A DNA stretch of 8,155 nt from a virus (lineage: Duplodnaviria; Heunggongvirae; Uroviricota; Caudoviricetes), in IMG/VR virus record IMGVR_UViG_2671180254_000007; one strand, 5' to 3'. Of this stretch, positions 1 to 8,155 are shown in pieces (position 1 is the first letter of the stretch; each line of letters starts with the position of its first letter). Under the pieces are notes generated by a model. It was not told where the DNA came from. It saw nothing but the letters and a program-made list of their open reading frames with translations, and did not search any database. The position numbers and the translations under genes are program-made.

Positions 1-61
1 CATCAGATGGCTGCTTAAAAAAAGAACAAATGGTAGTGTCCGCTATTGCCAGTACACCTCA
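1..61. repeat. Left copy of a perfect 61-bp terminal inverted repeat (partner at 8094..8154)
   Basis: Seen in sequence: bases 1..61 equal the reverse complement of 8094..8154; identity ends at 62 versus 8093. Confidence 0.9.
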
Positions 62-188
62 GGGTATAAGGGGTTATGGCCACCGGACTACCAAACGGCT
101 GCCAGCCCTCTTTCAGTTTATGTGTCAGCTTTTCCGCAAGATCTGACGGCGGCGCCGCCCTGACAACATCATAGTGTTTAAATGCCAT
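15..188 (-). CDS. DUF1737-like small phage protein with a replaced C-terminus (start could also be 203)
   Basis: ORF-track protein from the internal Met (MAFKHYDVVRAAPPSDLAEKLTHKLKEGWQPFGSPVAI...) fits the DUF1737 pattern I recall (GWxPxG core); GGAAAG lies 5 nt upstream of the ATG at 188. The last 15 codons (LRCTGNSGHYHLFFF) are encoded by the inverted repeat, so the native C-terminus looks replaced. Confidence 0.5.
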   Translation of the reverse strand: MAFKHYDVVRAAPPSDLAEKLTHKLKEGWQPFGSPVAITPYTLRCTGNSGHYHLFFF

Positions 189-381
189 GGTTCTTTCCAC
201 CATCTGAAAAATAATTCTTTAAAATACCTGACATGTAATACAGAAAAAACACAAAACCATACCTTAAATAAAAACCTGATTATCAAGCAGATATGCATGG
301 ATAAACTACAAGACGAGATATAAACCACCCTGCATTTAAATAAACAATAAACAACATCAGAAAAATAATTCTGCTCTATGG

Positions 382-408
382 TTTACATTCAAAAATATCA
401 TTTATACT
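382..408 (+). promoter_or_regulatory. Putative sigma70-like promoter upstream of ORF 449..784
   Basis: TTTACA (382-387) and TATACT (403-408) with a 15-nt spacer in AT-rich DNA; spacer is short and AT-rich DNA gives many chance matches. Confidence 0.2.
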
Positions 409-448
409 TTTCAGAACATCACCAGCAAGGCATAAACAAGGAAACTAA

Positions 449-784
449 ATGAAGTGGATTGTGATTGATACAGTTATCCAGCCATCATGCGGAATATCTT
501 TTTCAGTCATATGGAGTAAAATAAAATTAATAATCTGGTATCAATCGGATGCTTTCTTACCTCCTGAAAGTATATTTACACTGACTCACACAGGCATCAT
601 GCTCAATAACAAAGTGCTACCTGTAACCATTTACAACGTAGTACCATTCAATAAAACATTCTGGAATTCAATCAAAAATAGCCAGGAATGCCCTACAAAT
701 ACAGATAACGTATTGAATGAATGCTTTAATAACCGTTGCACTCTGCAAATATGTCCTTATGGACTAAAACAACAAAGTCCATAA
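449..784 (+). CDS. Hypothetical protein, AT-rich cargo (moron-like) ORF, Cys- and aromatic-rich
   Basis: A 111-codon open frame in ~30% GC DNA where stops should be frequent; AGGA 6 nt upstream of the ATG; orientation opposite to the surrounding operon. No family recognised. Confidence 0.35.
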
Positions 785-812
785 GGAGTTTACTCACATC
801 TGACAAAATCAA

Positions 813-1071
813 NNNNNNNNNNNNNNNNNNNNNNNNNNNNNNNNNNNNNNNNNNNNNNNNNNNNNNNNNNNNNNNNNNNNNNNNNNNNNNNNNNNNNNNN
901 NNNNNNNNNNNNNNNNNNNNNNNNNNNNNNNNNNNNNNNNNNNNNNNNNNNNNNNNNNNNNNNNNNNNNNNNNNNNNNNNNNNNNNNNNNNNNNNNNNNN
1001 NNNNNNNNNNNNNNNNNNNNNNNNNNNNNNNNNNNNNNNNNNNNNNNNNNNNNNNNNNNNNNNNNNNNNNN
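813..1071. other. Run of 259 N (masked sequence or assembly gap)
   Basis: Seen in sequence; content unknowable. Confidence 1.
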
Positions 1072-1184
1072 CGCCACCAGCACACCGTCAGCCAGCACTG
1101 ACATTATCCGGCTGCTGCAATGCCATTCACAAAAACAGTAAGCAATCACTTTTTACCGTAACAGGTGATAATCCAGATATGTAT

Positions 1185-1600: not shown

Positions 1601-1850
1601 NNNNNNNNNNNNNNNNNNNNNNNNNNNNNNNNNNNNNNNNNNNNNNNNNNNNNNNNNNNNNNNNNNNNNNNNNNNNNNNNNNNNNNNNNNNNNNNNNNNN
1701 NNNNNNNNNNNNNNNNNNNNNNNNNNNNNNNNNNNNNNNNNNNNNNNNNNNNNNNNNNNNNNNNNNNNNNNNNNNNNNNNNNNNNNNNNNNNNNNNNNNN
1801 NNNNNNNNNNNNNNNNNNNNNNNNNNNNNNNNNNNNNNNNNNNNNNNNNN
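1601..1850. other. Run of 250 N (masked sequence or assembly gap)
   Basis: Seen in sequence. Confidence 1.
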
Positions 1851-1910
1851 ATATAGCACCCTGACTGATACTGTAGTACCTAAGGTTCCAGAAACTGTGA
1901 TGTATCCGGC

Positions 1911-1936
1911 ACAGAAAAGCCCCTCCGGAGAGGGCT
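1911..1936 (-). terminator. Putative intrinsic terminator (minus strand)
   Basis: GC-rich hairpin agcccctc-cgga-gagggct at 1918..1936, followed on the minus strand by TTTTCTGT. Confidence 0.35.
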
Positions 1937-2132
1937 GGAGAGTGGCGCTATGTGCCATTGCATGATGCCGGGTGCCTCCCGGTGAATTCAGTACCAGCAC
2001 CTGAATCCGCGATTATCCCATATACCTACTCGCTGATTGCCCCTCCGCACAGGGGGATTCACCATGCCAGTTTCTTTTAACAAACTCCCCGCAAAACAGA
2101 CAACTGTCAACCGTCTGAATTGTGAGACATTT

Positions 2133-2158
2133 AAAAAAAAGGCCCGCAAAAGCGAGCC
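2133..2158 (-). terminator. Putative intrinsic terminator just downstream of the tRNA cluster (minus strand)
   Basis: Minus strand reads ggctcgc-tttt-gcgggcc followed by eight T (plus-strand A8 at 2133..2140). Confidence 0.5.
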
Positions 2159-2172
2159 AGGGAAAATAAGTG

Positions 2173-2249
2173 TGGCGCGTTGTACTGGATTCGAACCAGT
2201 GACCGATTGCTTAGAAGGCAATTGCTCTGTCCGGCTGAGCTAACAACGC
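2173..2249 (-). tRNA. tRNA-Arg (anticodon UCU)
   Basis: Manual fold of the reverse complement: acceptor gcgttgt/acaacgc, D-stem gctc/gagc, anticodon loop cuUCUaa, T-arm cactg-gttcgaatc-cagtg, discriminator G, encoded CCA. Resembles E. coli argU architecture. Confidence 0.85.
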
Positions 2250-2262
2250 ATGATGCAGATAA

Positions 2263-2339
2263 TGGACCGCCATCGGGGACTTGAACCCCGCGCAGCCAGC
2301 TTCGAAGGCTGGCGCTCTTTCCTGATGAGCTAATGGCGG
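2263..2339 (-). tRNA. tRNA-Arg (anticodon UCG)
   Basis: Manual fold: acceptor ccgccat/atggcgg, anticodon stem ccagc/gctgg with loop cuUCGaa, T-arm cgggg-ttcaagt-ccccg, encoded CCA. The C1:G72 pair is unusual, so the 5' end may be off by a base. Confidence 0.75.
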
Positions 2340-2346
2340 TATGTGA

Positions 2347-2422
2347 TGGTGGCCCTTGCTGGATTTGAACCAGCGACCTGGCGATTATGAGTCGCTCGCT
2401 CTCACCACTGAGCTAAAGGGCC
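2347..2422 (-). tRNA. tRNA-Ile2 (anticodon CAU, lysidine type); Met cannot be excluded from sequence alone
   Basis: Manual fold: acceptor ggccctt/aagggcc, anticodon loop cuCAUaa, T-loop ttcaaat, encoded CCA; strongly resembles E. coli ileX as I recall it. Together with the two Arg tRNAs this matches the ileZ-argN-argO arrangement of Stx-type lambdoid phages. Confidence 0.85.
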
Positions 2423-2462
2423 GGGAGCCGCATAATAACGACGCGTAATTAATTCTTCAATA

Positions 2463-3521
2463 TCATCCGTTCTGGCTGACTAAATCCTGTACTTCCCGAA
2501 CCGTCTGCTCAAAACGTTCAGTCTCCAGCTCAACGCCAATTGCACGACGCCCGAGCGCCAGTGCCGCTTTCACTGTCGAACCCAACCCCATGAAAAAATC
2601 TGCAATCAGGTCACCCGGACGACTGCTAGCGCTGATTATCTGCTGCAGCATTTCTGCCGGTTTTTCGCACGGATGTTTCCCGGGATAGAACTGCACCGGT
2701 TTATGCGTCCACACATCGGTATACGGCACCTGCACCGTCACGCCAAAATACCGCCGCAGATGTTTATATTCACTCAGCAGCTCCGCATACTGCCGGTTCA
2801 GTGAGGTATACGTATCCACCAGCTGGTGGTGGAGCTTTTCCAGTTCACCACGCCGATGCTTCTCTTCTGCCACCCGGGCAAACAGCGCCTGTAATTTCAG
2901 ATAATCGCTTTCATTCGGCAACTGCCACTGACCGGCACTGAACCAGTGCGACACCATGTTTTTCTTTCCTGTGGCATCTGCAATCTGTTTTGCCGTTATC
3001 CCCAGGGCAGCTCGCGCATCACGAAAGTAAGAAATCAGCGGGGCCATCACATGCTGTTTCAGTGCACTGCCCTTCGCCGCATACCCGGCATCTTTCGGAC
3101 GATACGGCCCCTGATAATGTTCCGCGAACAGAATGCGCTCTGTGGCGGGGAAATACGCCCGCAGGCTTTCCTTGTTGCATCCGTTCCAGCGTCCGGACGG
3201 CTTCGCCCAGATAATATGGTTCAGCACACTGAAGCGTTCACGCATCATGATTTCGATATCAGATGCCAGGCGATGACCACAGAACAGGTAAAGACTTCCG
3301 GCAGGTTTCAGCACCCGCCAGAACTGCGCCAGACACTGGTCCAGCCACTTCAGGTAATCATCGTCGCCCTTCCACTGGTTATCCCAGCCCTCAGGCTTCA
3401 CTTTAAAGTACGGCGGGTCCGTGACTATCAGGTCAACAGAATTTTCGGGTAACGACCGGATAAATTCCAGGCAGTCGGCGTTGATTAACTCACAACTGGA
3501 TATTTTTACAGTATTAAGCAT
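2463..3521 (-). CDS. Orphan DNA methyltransferase, beta-class (N6-adenine likely; PF01555-like)
   Basis: 352-aa ORF with DPPY catalytic motif near the N-terminus (VTDPPYF) and the AdoMet motif FxGxG near the C-terminus (DFFMGLGST); this motif order is beta-class. A central ~90-aa insert could be the target-recognition domain. No restriction endonuclease ORF is adjacent. Confidence 0.9.
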   Translation of the reverse strand: MLNTVKISSCELINADCLEFIRSLPENSVDLIVTDPPYFKVKPEGWDNQWKGDDDYLKWLDQCLAQFWRVLKPAGSLYLFCGHRLASDIEIMMRERFSVLNHIIWAKPSGRWNGCNKESLRAYFPATERILFAEHYQGPYRPKDAGYAAKGSALKQHVMAPLISYFRDARAALGITAKQIADATGKKNMVSHWFSAGQWQLPNESDYLKLQALFARVAEEKHRRGELEKLHHQLVDTYTSLNRQYAELLSEYKHLRRYFGVTVQVPYTDVWTHKPVQFYPGKHPCEKPAEMLQQIISASSRPGDLIADFFMGLGSTVKAALALGRRAIGVELETERFEQTVREVQDLVSQNG

Positions 3522-3553
3522 GGATCATTAAGCCTGTCTCTGATAGGCTCATT

Positions 3554-3572
3554 CTGCTTTTGCGCAAAGCAG
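3554..3572. promoter_or_regulatory. Near-perfect palindrome ctgcttttgcgcaaagcag upstream of the methyltransferase start
   Basis: Seen in sequence, ~35-50 bp upstream of the ATG at 3521; operator-like dyad symmetry. Confidence 0.3.
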
Positions 3573-3613
3573 TGGGCCTGAGGTTTGCTTGTGAACCCAA
3601 CGCATGAGCAGAT

Positions 3614-3644
3614 GGCTGGTGGGTGCCCCTAACACCCACCAGCC
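3614..3644. promoter_or_regulatory. Perfect 12-bp inverted repeat (ggctggtgggtg / cacccaccagcc) with 7-nt spacer
   Basis: Seen in sequence; no flanking T-tract on either strand, so not a typical intrinsic terminator; candidate protein-binding site or RNA structure in the methyltransferase leader. Confidence 0.35.
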
Positions 3645-3655
3645 GCCCATTTACC

Positions 3656-3685
3656 ACAAATAAAAAAGCCTTCACTGCGGAAGGC
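3656..3685 (-). terminator. Intrinsic terminator overlapping the stop codon of ORF 3672..3869
   Basis: Minus strand: gccttc-cgcagt-gaaggc followed by TTTTTTATTT. Confidence 0.6.
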
Positions 3686-3869
3686 GTCTGTAACAACCGA
3701 ACTGATAGTCTGCCAGACCCGCCATAACCAGCTGGGTCAGTATTAACTGGCAGCGTTCGCGTGAAAGGTAAGTATTCTGCGCTATCTCCCCGACTGTCGC
3801 CGGTTCGGTAACGCTTAATTCATTAAACACCACTCTGGCGGTTTCTGTCATATCCTGCTGTTTTAGCAT
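3672..3869 (-). CDS. Small (65 aa) hypothetical protein, possible helix-turn-helix DNA-binding protein
   Basis: ATG at 3869 with AGGA 6 nt upstream; the segment TVGEIAQNTYLSRERCQLILTQL looks like an HTH recognition region (inference only). Confidence 0.5.
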   Translation of the reverse strand: MLKQQDMTETARVVFNELSVTEPATVGEIAQNTYLSRERCQLILTQLVMAGLADYQFGCYRRLPQ

Positions 3870-3987
3870 GTCTTTTCCTTTTCCGGTTAACGTGACACAC
3901 CAATAACTCTTGTCGAAAAAGCCAGCAAGCTGAAAGACAGGTATTCACCGCCACCAGCGCGTTTACTGTACTGACGCGATTTCAGTC

Positions 3988-4011
3988 ATAAAAAACCCGC
4001 TCGGCGGCGGG
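3988..4011 (-). terminator. tR'-like intrinsic terminator downstream of Q
   Basis: Minus strand: cccgc-cgccga-gcggg followed by TTTTTTAT. Confidence 0.55.
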
Positions 4012-4060
4012 TTGTAGAAACTCTTCTAACGTCAGGCATAAAACGCCCATCGTTATGACG

Positions 4061-4088
4061 AATTTACCACAGATTCCGGAAAAATCAA
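4061..4088 (-). promoter_or_regulatory. pR'-like late promoter (candidate Q engagement/qut region)
   Basis: Minus strand TTGATT (4088..4083), 16-nt spacer, TAAATT (4066..4061), immediately downstream of the Q stop and ~55 nt upstream of the tR'-like terminator; position matches lambda pR'/tR' logic. Confidence 0.4.
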
Positions 4089-4093
4089 CCTTG

Positions 4094-4915
4094 TTACCTA
4101 GTTACCTTTTTTAACTGCCGCTCAGCCCATGCTTCTTCAATATCAAACCGGGTCACCAGCGCATCATAAAATTTCTTAACTGTTTTTTCCCATGACGCGC
4201 GTGTTATCTGGTTTGTCACCTCGCATATAGCATTAAATGCCTCCGTTGATGGTAGTCTTTCATAGCCACGACCACCACAACGCTGGCAGTCTCTGATAAC
4301 AGGCATACCACGTTTTACCGACTCTTCACGATGAATGGCGACACCACGCCCACGGCAATCCTTACAGGCGGTGGAAACCTCACCCTTTCCGCCACACTCC
4401 GGACAGGCAACTTTTACCACCTCCCTGACTTTTTTCCATTCTTCCCAGTAAGACGGATACACACCTTTCGTACACTTTGCCCATACCGGCGGCTTACCAT
4501 CCGGATACTGGATCTTGTTTGTAAAAACCTCGCTTTCAATAAATTTTTTTCCGTGACAGCAGGGGCACTGTTTTTTGCTCGCCGCGCTACGGGCATAATC
4601 TTCAAACGCATACGAAGCCATAATACGCATCACTGCCGGTTTTATTTCTGCCGGGAGTTTTCTTAACGCCGCCACGCGATCACACCGACTGAGTGCATAT
4701 TCTGTCAGCAATTCTGTTGCCCGCTCTCTGTCATTCATACTAATGCCCATTTTCCCAAGGAACGCAGAAACCCCCATCTCAGCCCGATTCTGTGTCATGC
4801 CCTGCGCGGCCATCACATCAGTGATACTCAGCGCATCTTTCGACGTTGAGGCCGATGCATCAGTCAGGCCGGGGGATTTTGGGGAGTAGTATTTCGGTAA
4901 ATCTTCCAGTTTCAT
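4094..4915 (-). CDS. Late-gene antitermination protein Q (lambda Q family, with insertion)
   Basis: 273-aa protein aligns by eye with lambda Q: N-terminal M(K/R)LE..PK(Y/F)(Y/H)SPKSP, TDVMAA.GM, DY.RSAA, CxxC zinc motifs, C-terminal TVK..YDALV...VTR. Start ATG overlaps the rusA stop (ATGA). Confidence 0.9.
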   Translation of the reverse strand: MKLEDLPKYYSPKSPGLTDASASTSKDALSITDVMAAQGMTQNRAEMGVSAFLGKMGISMNDRERATELLTEYALSRCDRVAALRKLPAEIKPAVMRIMASYAFEDYARSAASKKQCPCCHGKKFIESEVFTNKIQYPDGKPPVWAKCTKGVYPSYWEEWKKVREVVKVACPECGGKGEVSTACKDCRGRGVAIHREESVKRGMPVIRDCQRCGGRGYERLPSTEAFNAICEVTNQITRASWEKTVKKFYDALVTRFDIEEAWAERQLKKVTR

Positions 4916-5292
4916 TTTTTGACCTGCCCTTCAAGCATTATGGGATAAATCTTCACCCCCAGACGTCCACCAGATACTGGCTGAGCACGAACGATATTGA
5001 TTTCATCAAACTGCTCATCGTCCATTAGCAACCCCGCATGCGTCAGCGCATCCAGCGGCGCTTTCAGAATATTGTCCAGGTCACGGCGGCGCTTATCCGG
5101 TGGTTCTGCAATAATTTTTATTGCCAACCTTCCGGACAGGCTTAATTTCAGCCGCTGCTGGCGAACAATAAGCGCCACTGCCCGGCGATAACGCTCCCCG
5201 GCTTTTGATACAAAATATGTGCTGCCACGACGACGCCAGTAAGTGTTCACCGTCGGCGGGTAAGGTAAAACAAATTCTATGCGCTCGGTCAT
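4912..5292 (-). CDS. rusA: Holliday-junction resolvase RusA
   Basis: 126-aa protein matches E. coli RusA as I recall it (LPxPPxxN, PDxRRRDLDN, DALTxAG, GGRL). Confidence 0.92.
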   Translation of the reverse strand: MTERIEFVLPYPPTVNTYWRRRGSTYFVSKAGERYRRAVALIVRQQRLKLSLSGRLAIKIIAEPPDKRRRDLDNILKAPLDALTHAGLLMDDEQFDEINIVRAQPVSGGRLGVKIYPIMLEGQVKK

Positions 5293-6351
5293 TTATGCTT
5301 TCCACTTCAGAACACCCGAATTTCTCGCGTGCATTAAAAAACGAATCAGCAACAACAGCTGACTGCCGTGTTTCTCTTCAAAATCTTTTACTCCGGCATG
5401 TAGTTCGTTACGGCATTTACGGCATAACGGAATAACAAACAAATCATCAGCCTTTGTTCCCATCCCTCCCAGTCCATGACCAATGATGTGATGCGGATCA
5501 TCTGCCTGATTGCCACACGTCATGCATTTCTGCGTTTTTACCCAGCGCGTGTATACAGGCATCTCTTCCCGTTGTGATTTCTGGCGCTGGAGATACTGAG
5601 CCGGTGACTCCGGATCAACGGCAATGCTGACCACCGTCTTTTCCTGTGGTGGGTTCTGTTGCTGGTGGACGTGAGGCAGTAACGCAATATTTTTTGTGCG
5701 CTGCTTCAGTATGCTGGTGGCTGTCTGCTCTCCCGGTATGATGTCGCTTTCACTGTACACAGAGCGAATTTTTTCCGCACGCAACCCCAGCGAACGACGT
5801 AATACCGCTTCCGGTAGCGCGTCCGCCACCTGATTGCGGACCGCCCACCAGGATAATTCAGCCAGAGATAATTCACGCTCCTGCGTACCGCTTATTGCGT
5901 GACCGATGACGTCAATCATCCATGCTGACAGGTTTTGATGAGCAAGTTGCTCGAGTGATTCGGATGTCTGGTCACGCAGCTGGTTGTCGCAGTGCCAGCA
6001 CAACACCATTGCGCCGGTACCATAACGGTGAATGACGGTTTCGCTGTGATGATAATCGCCGTGTGGCCACTGGCAGGATTTAATATGGCGCAACAGCCAG
6101 TCAGACAATGCACCAGCACCACCAGCAGCACGAATCACCCGTGCGTTACTGAAAAACGGCAGCAATGTTTTGTCTTCCACCAGCGGCTGGCGAGCGGCAG
6201 GAACGACCCCGGACGGCAGATTACGCATGCTTTTTGGTTCCGGCTCCACCAGTATTCTGCCGTTATGGAATGCTGACATTGATTCACGGCCTGGCTTAAC
6301 GATAACCAGACCGAGTTCCGGTACCAGAACAGGTCGAAGTAATACCCGCAC
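5293..6351 (-). CDS. DUF968-family prophage protein (YdfU-like) with C-terminal Cys/His HNH-like motif
   Basis: 352-aa ORF; GTG start at 6351 preceded by GGAGG with a 4-nt spacer (alternative ATG at 6279); C-terminal CMTCG...HHIIGH...CRKCRNELH; lies directly upstream of rusA and Q as in Qin-type prophages. Confidence 0.8.
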   Translation of the reverse strand: MRVLLRPVLVPELGLVIVKPGRESMSAFHNGRILVEPEPKSMRNLPSGVVPAARQPLVEDKTLLPFFSNARVIRAAGGAGALSDWLLRHIKSCQWPHGDYHHSETVIHRYGTGAMVLCWHCDNQLRDQTSESLEQLAHQNLSAWMIDVIGHAISGTQERELSLAELSWWAVRNQVADALPEAVLRRSLGLRAEKIRSVYSESDIIPGEQTATSILKQRTKNIALLPHVHQQQNPPQEKTVVSIAVDPESPAQYLQRQKSQREEMPVYTRWVKTQKCMTCGNQADDPHHIIGHGLGGMGTKADDLFVIPLCRKCRNELHAGVKDFEEKHGSQLLLLIRFLMHARNSGVLKWKA

Positions 6352-6426
6352 ATTACCTCCAGATCCGTTGCTGGAATGTGCGGGACGGACGCGTTGGCCG
6401 TTCGGAGTAAGGGAGCCTGACGGAGA

Positions 6427-6711
6427 TTATCCAGTGACGGTAGTCGAGGCTAAGGGCTTTTTTAACCTCGCATCCGCGCCTGCGGTAACACTGAATGAGC
6501 CATTCGGCCTGTTCTTCAGTGCATGGGGGATGCTGGTACCAATCAGATTTAAATGCGTGAGAGCGCCGCCCGTGCCTGCTGGCAAAGACGGCTGAATTAT
6601 CAGAATTGTGTAGTCTGGAAGGCAGTGGCTGACAATAGCGCCATTCTCAACGCGCACAGTATAGAGGCCATCTTCACTAAAAATTTCACGTAATTCTTCG
6701 ATTTTCATCAA
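6427..6711 (-). CDS. Small nin-region protein (possible Rem-like), with a possible -1 frame continuation to 6353
   Basis: 94-aa ORF with AAGGA ~9 nt upstream of the ATG; position matches rem in E. coli K-12 Qin (hokD-rem-ydfU). The -1 frame stays open ~98 codons and ends at the DUF968 start. Confidence 0.5.
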   Translation of the reverse strand: MMKIEELREIFSEDGLYTVRVENGAIVSHCLPDYTILIIQPSLPAGTGGALTHLNLIGTSIPHALKNRPNGSFSVTAGADARLKKPLASTTVTG

Positions 6712-6827
6712 CAGAATCCTTCCAGATAAATAGCACTCCCCTGTTCGGGGTCCATCCCTCTTCTCCCTGCGCGCTACTTAAGTATTTTTGATTCTATTCC
6801 GGCACCATCTAAAACTTCAAACGCGTT

Positions 6828-6858
6828 GAAAATAAAAACAAAAACCCGCCGAAGCGGG
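6828..6858 (-). terminator. Intrinsic terminator downstream of hok (minus strand)
   Basis: Minus strand: cccgcttcggcggg followed by TTTTTGTTTTTATTTT. Confidence 0.6.
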
Positions 6859-6928
6859 TTAAGTGTGGGTGCATTGAGGATGCCTGACCCATCAGAGGTG
6901 GCGAGGGATTTCTCCCCCGCCTGGTCTC

Positions 6929-7084
6929 TTACTCCTCAGGTTCGTAAGCTGTGAAGACAGCGACCTCCGTCTGGCCGGTTCGAATTCGTACCTCGCAGAG
7001 GTCTTTCCTCGTTACCAGTGCCGTCACTATGACGGTTAAACAGATGACGATCAGGGCGATTAACATCGCCTTTTGCTGCTTCAT
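6929..7084 (-). CDS. hokD: Hok/Gef-family type I toxin (HokD/RelF-like), 51 aa
   Basis: Internal Met of ORF 6929..7141 gives MKQQKAMLIALIVICLTVIVTALVTRKDLCEVRIRTGQTEVAVFTAYEPEE, matching E. coli HokD as I recall it; GGAG 9 nt upstream of this ATG. The track ORF adds 19 in-frame upstream codons of uncertain meaning. Confidence 0.9.
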   Translation of the reverse strand: MKQQKAMLIALIVICLTVIVTALVTRKDLCEVRIRTGQTEVAVFTAYEPEE

Positions 7085-7375
7085 AGCCTGCTTCTCCTTG
7101 CCTTTCGGCACGTAAGAGGCTAACCTAGATTTGCCGTTCATAGATTGAGCCTCAGATTAATGTTAAGCGTCTTGCCGGACGCGTAATGTTAACTGGGGCT
7201 TTTCTCTATCTGCCTTTTGGTGTTCATGCCTGAGACAGATAGCCTCAAGCACCCGCTGCAATTCTACTTAACTCTCCTTTTCCCGCAAACCGTTTTTATC
7301 CCCAGCGGCAAATCGAATACACCACCAGCGCCACCGCCATCGCAATTCCTACCGTTGTTAATGCTTCAGGCCAGG

Positions 7376-7720
7376 TCATCGTAAAATATCCTCCACGCTT
7401 ATCAGTCCGTTCCGCTCCAGATAACTCATCGCCTTATCCGGTAATTTGCAGTCTGGCTTCGCTTTCCTCAGTTGCCAGGTTAACTGCTTTACCAGCATGG
7501 TTAACTCATCGACCAGACGCTGATATCCCACTGGTTTGTATTCATGCAATTTACCGGCTGGCTCTGCTGCCAGCGATACCAGTGCGATTTCCAGAACAGC
7601 AATATCCATCTTATATGTGCGGATGATGTCATGGTCGATTGTGCCCGGTATGCACAGTCTCTGTGCTTCAATAGTCTCCTCTGCGTGAGCTATTAACTGC
7701 TCTCTGGTAAAAGTCGTCAT
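7376..7720 (-). CDS. Hypothetical protein (114 aa), paralogous to the upstream 55-aa ORF
   Basis: ATG overlaps the stop of the upstream ORF (ATGA). N-terminus MTTFTREQL resembles MTTITKERI of the neighbour, and both share an IAL.SL.AEP segment. No family recognised. Confidence 0.6.
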
Positions 7721-7884
7721 GCCGTAGCCCCTTCTTGATATTTTTCAAACCAGAACACAACCGGCTCTGCTTCCAGCGATGCCAGCGCAATCCGTGCCAG
7801 TTCCATTTGTTCACCACGGGTAAGCCCGTTTTCAAGCGGGTTTTTAATGAACAATTCAATACGTTCTTTGGTAATAGTGGTCAT
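7717..7884 (-). CDS. Hypothetical protein (55 aa), absent from the ORF track (<60 aa)
   Basis: Hand translation: [55 protein letters not shown]; GGAG 6 nt upstream of the ATG at 7884; stop overlaps the next start. Confidence 0.55.
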
Positions 7885-7894
7885 GTGTTACTCC

Positions 7895-8125
7895 TTAACC
7901 CGCAGTGCTTTCAACTGATGAGGGGAACAAAATCTTTTCATCAAACCCTGCATTCATATCATGAACAGCAACACACCAATCCATCGACGAACGATTATCA
8001 AGAGCCTCCATGATTTCATCCATGCGGCGTAGGTCATACAGGTAAATGCTTTTATCGCCAATGGTGTAAAAGCCAATTTTTTTCGGTGATGGATGAGGTG
8101 TACTGGCAATAGCGGACACTACCAT
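7895..8125 (-). CDS. Hypothetical protein, probably the C-terminal part of a gene that starts beyond the window
   Basis: 76-aa ORF with no RBS before its ATG; the frame remains open upstream to the window edge (inside the inverted repeat); its stop immediately precedes the RBS of the 55-aa ORF. Confidence 0.4.
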   Translation of the reverse strand: MVVSAIASTPHPSPKKIGFYTIGDKSIYLYDLRRMDEIMEALDNRSSMDWCVAVHDMNAGFDEKILFPSSVESTAG

Positions 8126-8154
8126 TTGTTCTTTTTTTAAGCAGCCATCTGATG
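8094..8154. repeat. Right copy of the perfect 61-bp terminal inverted repeat
   Basis: Reverse complement of 1..61. Confidence 0.9.
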
Positions 8155-8155
8155 A

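Follow-up and report, generated by a model that had tools for sequence, protein, structure and literature searches.

iraL, a described RssB anti-adaptor gene, as moron-type cargo of an IS-eroded lambdoid prophage

The gene considered here belongs to a small family of anti-adaptor genes with three named members, iraL, iraM and rssC. IraL is itself a named, experimentally characterised protein (2014): a homologue of IraM, 58.9% identical to it, was recognised in a prophage-like island of E. coli CFT073 and given this name (Hryckowian et al. 2014, mBio, PMC4045071). [quoted passage not shown] Deletion of iraL in CFT073 and in S. sonnei lowered log-phase RpoS and shortened its half-life from ~5 to ~2.5 min, and placing a −100..+33 fragment together with iraL in K-12 raised log-phase RpoS; the 5′ end of the CFT073 iraL transcript was mapped by 5′RACE (PMC4045071). 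It has also been reported for CFT073 that IraL levels are elevated in a fur mutant (PMC7157518) and that iraL mRNA rises by 1.6 log2 upon a shift from 23 to 37°C (PMC12890032).

K-12 IraM (YcgW/ElbA; structure 8TWD, Brugger et al. 2023, PMC10844676) is a relative with a solved structure. [quoted passage not shown] Among PDB models the IraM fold resembles only PmrD, with an r.m.s.d. of about 1 Å (PMC10844676). PmrD (PF11183; 4HN7) shares the unusual beta-barrel with IraM and, like it, is a small protein whose binding partner is the receiver domain of a response regulator, but PmrD has neither a role in RssB/RpoS control nor a Cys-rich C-terminal tail. The two E. coli genes also differ in control, since Mg2+ starvation induces iraM through PhoP and iraL is a gene expressed during log phase, and their promoters are unrelated. 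The third member, RssC, is limited to Salmonella, with rssC and iraL ~49% identical by ClustalW (PMC4045071); it was not among the proteins returned by our searches.

A second group of relevant systems is formed by the morons found between Q and the lysis genes of lambdoid phages, such as stxAB and bor, which like iraL have their own promoter, a deviant composition and expression from the repressed prophage; in a related phage stxAB occupies the same interval as iraL. Unlike those morons, iraL runs against the late operon and encodes a product that targets a host proteolysis adaptor and is neither a toxin nor a surface protein.

The AT-rich island and its gene

We analysed a stretch of 8,155 nt of virus DNA (IMG/VR record IMGVR_UViG_2671180254_000007), hereafter the window. 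Gene identity, promoter, context, selection and distribution were computed, while RssB binding, RpoS half-life and the transcription start were taken from published near-identical alleles. The original prediction had pointed to a low-GC island at 204..812 within a backbone of about 50% GC, and the composition of the window agrees with this: GC content was 32.2% in 204..812, compared with 50.4% in the backbone (2100..8155) and 49.3% in positions 1..203. The island is not uniform, as its upstream part (204..448) has 28.6% GC and its ORF (449..784) 34.5%. Position 812 is the last base before a run of N (813..1071), but a twin locus, L005, is unmasked there and is 100% identical to the window over 1..812. 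In L005 the AT-rich stretch stops at the equivalent of window position ~808, giving the island sharp edges at ~200 and ~808, and the boundaries given in the original prediction are therefore right.

The island contains a single notable ORF, an intact 111-codon frame with an ATG start on the plus strand at 449..784, exactly where it had been placed. Every recognisable phage gene of the window is encoded on the minus strand, which makes this ORF convergent with the late operon, again as predicted. A minus-strand gene in the island was considered and rejected, because the ORF listing held no minus-strand ORF of at least 40 aa within 329..725. The description of the 111-aa product as rich in cysteine and aromatic residues was true only to a modest degree, with 5 Cys (4.5%) and 13 W/F/Y (11.7%).

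We found that this ORF is iraL. Its product is identical to CFT073 IraL (WP_000871291.1; c1429) at 110 of 111 amino acids, the sole substitution being L74S (the window carries the S74 allele), and the coding DNA is identical at 334 of 336 nt, with one synonymous and one non-synonymous difference. Identity to the CFT073 locus, flanks included, is 99.2% over 609 nt, a region that CFT073 holds in one copy only. The study that named the gene set the limits of iraL at an identity of 95% or more across the complete coding sequence and of 96% or more across the promoter (PMC4045071), and by both measures the window gene is iraL.

The original prediction had recognised no family for the product. This was not borne out by the protein and HMM search that it had proposed, which returned the IraM family of NCBIfam (NF007393) at 162 bits against a cutoff of 121 (E = 4.7e-48), with residues 1-110 aligned to profile positions 1-113 of 114, a full-length match. 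K-12 IraM belongs to the same NCBIfam family and is 60% identical to the product, and in a sequence search of the PDB the IraM chain of structure 8TWD was matched by residues 1-78 with E = 6e-31. The Pfam results were different. An hmmscan of the product at E ≤ 0.01 gave no family, and at E ≤ 10 it gave only a spurious match to Nairovirus_NSm, PF11183 being absent for the product and for K-12 IraM alike; contrary to this, precomputed Pfam tables do assign PF11183 (PmrD) to IraL. Because the Pfam scan gave no family, the identification rests on the NCBIfam, PDB and BLAST evidence. Structure prediction by AlphaFold2 from a 16-sequence family alignment gave an unreliable model (pLDDT 37, pTM 0.23), in which five strands followed by a helix at residues 69-76 loosely resemble the published description of IraM, a likeness that was given no weight. 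Since this model is unusable, the putative assignment of an IraM-type fold rests on sequence similarity to 8TWD.

The gene is widespread. Of 5426 complete E. coli genomes, 1446 contain the 609-nt region with an identity of at least 90%, and in 1429 of these the match covers at least 80% of its length. The annotation beneath the match was "anti-adapter protein IraM" in 25 of 25 of the matches listed, and loci annotated in this way are 99.2-99.5% identical to the window over all 609 nt. In the index of the assembly collection, 4016 blocks contain the exact S74 protein, among them record HE616528.1, which we take to be S. sonnei 53G and thus of a species with a demonstrated deletion phenotype.

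Conservation was also evident at the level of selection. Nei-Gojobori dN/dS was 0.28 against an allele at 88% protein identity, 0.19 against the 75% allele of an Stx prophage, 0.18 against the E. albertii allele at 65% and 0.15 against K-12 iraM at 60%, which shows purifying selection on iraL. The large protein clusters of the family consist of full-length proteins, with 111 or 107 aa. Two findings that the original prediction had named as telling against it, a lack of conservation in related prophages and stop codons in homologous loci, were both looked for and neither was seen.

The C-terminal tail of the protein (residues 81-111, window 689..781) has the pattern C81-X10-C92-X4-C97-X4-C102 followed by PYG, and it ends four residues beyond the C-terminus of IraM. 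All four of these cysteines, which K-12 IraM shares, are invariant in 16 of 16 aligned proteins of the IraL/IraM family, as are P82 and the ICP.G motif (I101, P103, G105), while the rest of the tail varies and is in other respects the least constant part of the protein; the fifth cysteine, C14, is not conserved. Searched alone against the PDB, the Cys-rich tail gave insignificant matches only, and the literature on IraM together with cysteine or zinc yielded nothing relevant.

Promoter and 3′ end of iraL

The AT-rich upstream region of iraL (204..448, plus strand) is 98.5% identical to that of CFT073, with 4 differences in 259 aligned positions, and the stretch that spans the −35 and −10 elements is identical. 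The 5′ end of the CFT073 iraL mRNA as determined by 5′RACE, 5′-ACATCACCAGCAAGGCATAAACAAGGAAACCA, maps to window positions 416..447 with one mismatch (T445 for C). By this homology transcription would start at A416, giving a 5′ UTR at 416..448. A −10 element, TATACT, is located at 403..408, 7 nt upstream of A416, and in our own reading the probable −35 element is TTTACA at 382..387, separated from it by a 15-nt spacer. A Shine-Dalgarno sequence, AAGGA, lies at 438..442, 6 nt before the ATG. Since the RACE-determined 5′ end of CFT073 is present at 416 below TATACT, iraL has its own promoter, and both this promoter, previously suggested as possible, and the AGGA ribosome-binding site of the original prediction were confirmed. 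From these elements the iraL message is predicted to be a short, plus-strand one, made from a sigma-70-type promoter and independent of the late operon; the orientation of iraL opposite to this operon also indicates that it is not Q-dependent. A generic promoter scan reported two chance-level sites, neither of which was the mapped promoter, and the short spacer explains why the sigma-70 scan missed it.

A scan for terminators after iraL found no canonical one. A perfect 12-bp hairpin lies over the iraL stop codon (754..787, plus strand; −17.5 kcal/mol, z = −4.4) and has no U-tract; it may be a weak terminator or a stabiliser of the 3′ end. It was rejected as a conserved element: the 88%-identical allele disrupts it with no compensatory changes, and iraM lacks it.

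Upstream of the coding region, no alignment was obtained between K-12 iraM and window positions 204..448, in agreement with the point made in PMC4045071 that iraL and iraM are regulated differently. We found a direct repeat resembling a PhoP box with one mismatch, TGTTTA-TTGTT-TATTTA, on the minus strand at 337..353, corresponding to −79..−63 from the transcription start. Dinucleotide shuffling of 204..448 yields such a site in about 5% of cases, and at this marginal significance (p ~0.05) it may serve as a lead only. No PhoP control of iraL has been reported.

The prophage around iraL

In E. coli genomes the AT-rich module always lay in the stretch of lambdoid prophages that runs from Q/tRNA to nanS-p/DUF1737. 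The order of genes around iraL recurs among lambdoid prophages: DUF1737/nanS-p on the minus strand, iraL on the plus strand, STnc100 and/or DUF3927, tRNAs, in some cases IS200 or a methyltransferase, and Q. This order was seen in CFT073, FDAARGOS_536, strain 64, TUM10008 and S. sonnei-like chromosomes, with iraL directly beside STnc100 and the tRNAs in TUM10008. It was also present in a deposited phage, vB_EcoS-640R1, in which full sets of lysis and terminase genes are found. The CFT073 and S. sonnei loci are like the window in promoter, start sequence and the succession of DUF1737 stump, iraL, DUF3927, tRNAs and Q. The window differs from CFT073 in that Q and the tRNAs are separated by a DNA methyltransferase gene instead of IS200, and it carries an extra segment bearing STnc100. 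E. albertii has an IraM-like gene with Q/ORF6N on one side and DUF3927 on the other.

On the upstream side, iraL is adjoined by a truncated DUF1737 ORF of 62 aa (15..203, minus strand; PF08410), which by comparison with full-length relatives is a stump of a NanS-p/SASA esterase. The full-length sialate esterases have 616-668 aa in three related loci (L012, L014 and L016). Thus, the original prediction was correct in the position of a DUF1737 gene beside the island, but the gene is not intact: only its N-terminal part remains, cut by an IS, and its C-terminal codons come from the IS end. Window positions 1..62 are the exact reverse complement of 8094..8155 (62 nt, 100%), and L005 has this 62-mer as the end of an IS3-type element (L005 6414..7613), adjoining its transposase gene. 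These inverted 62-nt ends suggest that the window is a segment, and probably the whole contig, between two IS copies.

On the other side of the island, the window holds a small DUF3927 ORF (1018..1149, minus strand) with its 3′ part under an N mask; its N-terminus is visible, and WP_000562553.1 is found at the equivalent place. The prophage sRNA STnc100 (RF02076) is located at 1907..2096 (minus strand; 123.6 bits against a gathering score of 47). STnc100 has been related to the PasD sRNAs of Stx phages (2026 preprint). In L005 a copy of STnc100 that is ~96% identical (8362..8551, minus strand) ends, at its 3′ side, 26 nt from the iraL stop and is convergent with iraL. Because loci identical to the window flanks carry an STnc100 copy at the site that is masked here (813..1071), the window probably contains a second copy, so that the DUF3927 segment 1072..1600 would lie between the two. 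The two N runs measure 259 nt (813..1071) and 250 nt (1601..1850). The iraL stop and the start of DUF3927 are 365 nt apart in the window and 412 nt apart in L003 and L005; this 47-nt shortfall reflects either a mask that did not preserve length or a 47-nt deletion in the window. The idea that stx genes might lie under the N masks, in the slot they use elsewhere, was rejected, as the unmasked twin L005 holds STnc100 and DUF3927 there.

Further along, all on the minus strand, are three prophage tRNAs (2173..2422), namely Arg(tct), Arg(tcg) and one with a CAT anticodon (tRNA-Ile in RefSeq), a DNA methyltransferase (2463..3521), a Q-type antiterminator (4094..4915), RusA (4912..5292) and a DUF968 protein (5293..6351). 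Likewise on the minus strand, a hok-type ORF (6929..7141; 70 aa when counted from the earliest in-frame start codon) and a sok RNA (7079..7254; RF01794, 112 bits) overlap each other; together they make up a hok/sok toxin-antitoxin system of type I within the early-right region of the prophage.

The placement of the island between the Q/tRNA region and DUF1737, which the original prediction had compared with the lambdoid moron site, proved to be an apt comparison, since stxA and stxB share this interval in a related prophage. A single E. coli genome (GCA_039832115.1) contains two prophages of this kind: in L012 (3206..5105) and L013 (3173..5072) a 75%-identical IraL-like gene (P0005) directly follows stxB (PF02258) and stxA (PF00161), is encoded on the other strand and precedes nanS-p. 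This arrangement indicates that some Stx phages carry an RpoS-stabilising anti-adaptor by the toxin genes. On the basis of its own promoter, deviant composition and modular placement, iraL is a genuine moron-type cargo gene. As to the terminator trait of morons, what is present is the hairpin over the stop codon, with its lack of a U-tract and of conservation in the diverged allele.

Other members of the family were seen in different settings. K-12 iraM also adjoins prophage-type genes, at the e14 border and next to the DUF1398 gene ycgX; in the sequence examined (L004 3414..5108) it is just outside the annotated border of e14, beside ymgK, ymgL and ycgX. At the corresponding bluR-ycgX...mcrA locus of E. 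coli ECGI0523 (L023 5001..5318), a 32%-identical trace was found with no ORF of at least 60 aa, apparently a decayed iraM. Citrobacter sp. ANG330 (L022 5001..5330) has a 109-aa gene of the IraM family, at 54% identity, on a part of the chromosome free of phage genes; on one side of it is a 436-aa ORF whose N-terminus resembles a signal peptide, and on the other a 321-aa ORF of outer-membrane-like type. The Citrobacter homologue indicates that the family is wider than Escherichia and Shigella and is sometimes found outside prophages.

Function, competing explanations and meaning

The proposed mode of action follows the published alleles. IraL would be a small cytoplasmic protein that binds the N-terminal receiver domain of the adaptor RssB. 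[quoted passage not shown] With RpoS stabilised in exponential growth, the general stress regulon would be partly pre-induced. [quoted passage not shown] The L74S substitution adjoins position 75, at which IraM makes a cluster II contact with the RssB C-terminal domain, and the S74 allele in the host of the window would be expected to behave like the published alleles.

It is very probable, in our assessment, that the ORF at 449..784 is iraL, an RssB anti-adaptor moron that acts as published, residing in an IS-eroded lambdoid prophage. Three other explanations were weighed against this one. The gene might be a strict equivalent of K-12 IraM, induced by PhoP/PhoQ in Mg2+ starvation and bridging both domains of RssB. 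[quoted passage not shown] Strict equivalence to IraM is accordingly very unlikely.

Even less credit is due to the two remaining alternatives, which we regard as about equally improbable. A PmrD-like connector for another response regulator, for example PmrA, or a protein serving the phage rather than the host, would agree with the precomputed assignment to PF11183 and with the finding that the IraM fold resembles only PmrD at an r.m.s.d. of about 1 Å (PMC10844676). Such a role is at odds with the co-purification of IraL and RssB, with their two-hybrid interaction and with the RpoS phenotype of the deletion, and also with the conservation of the residues that face the RssB N-terminal domain; nothing points to another partner. 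The ORF might instead be an unexpressed, decaying relic of a dead prophage, kept open by chance in AT-rich DNA. The prophage is indeed eroded, nanS-p being cut by an IS end and inverted IS termini lying at both ends of the window, and AT-rich DNA is typically silenced by H-NS. However, the ORF and its promoter are intact, dN/dS is 0.15-0.28, full-length proteins of 111 or 107 aa dominate the clusters, and both a transcript and a phenotype are known for near-identical alleles. An IraL that acts as published thus accounts best for the locus.

A more speculative idea concerns the regulation of this IraL. The tetra-Cys tail could be a metal or redox switch on the stability or activity of the anti-adaptor, and induction of the prophage could silence iraL by transcriptional collision; the latter was suggested by the convergence of iraL with the Q-dependent late transcript, 26 nt from the STnc100 3′ end in L005. 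We consider this idea improbable. If true, it would add a regulatory layer that is undescribed for IraL and would tie the RpoS level of the host to the state of the prophage.

The result is a correct annotation of the window and leaves the current understanding of IraL unchanged. Minor points of note are the invariant tetra-Cys tail, the fact that some phages carry such a gene close to stx, and a possible input from PhoP or H-NS. IraL is one difference in the wiring of the general stress response between pathogenic E. coli and Shigella on one side and K-12 on the other; it keeps RpoS up during growth and has been linked to the lifestyles of uropathogens and Shigella. The window also illustrates that a cargo gene can outlive the phage that carried it, as IS elements have interrupted the surrounding prophage and iraL, with its promoter, is still intact and under purifying selection.
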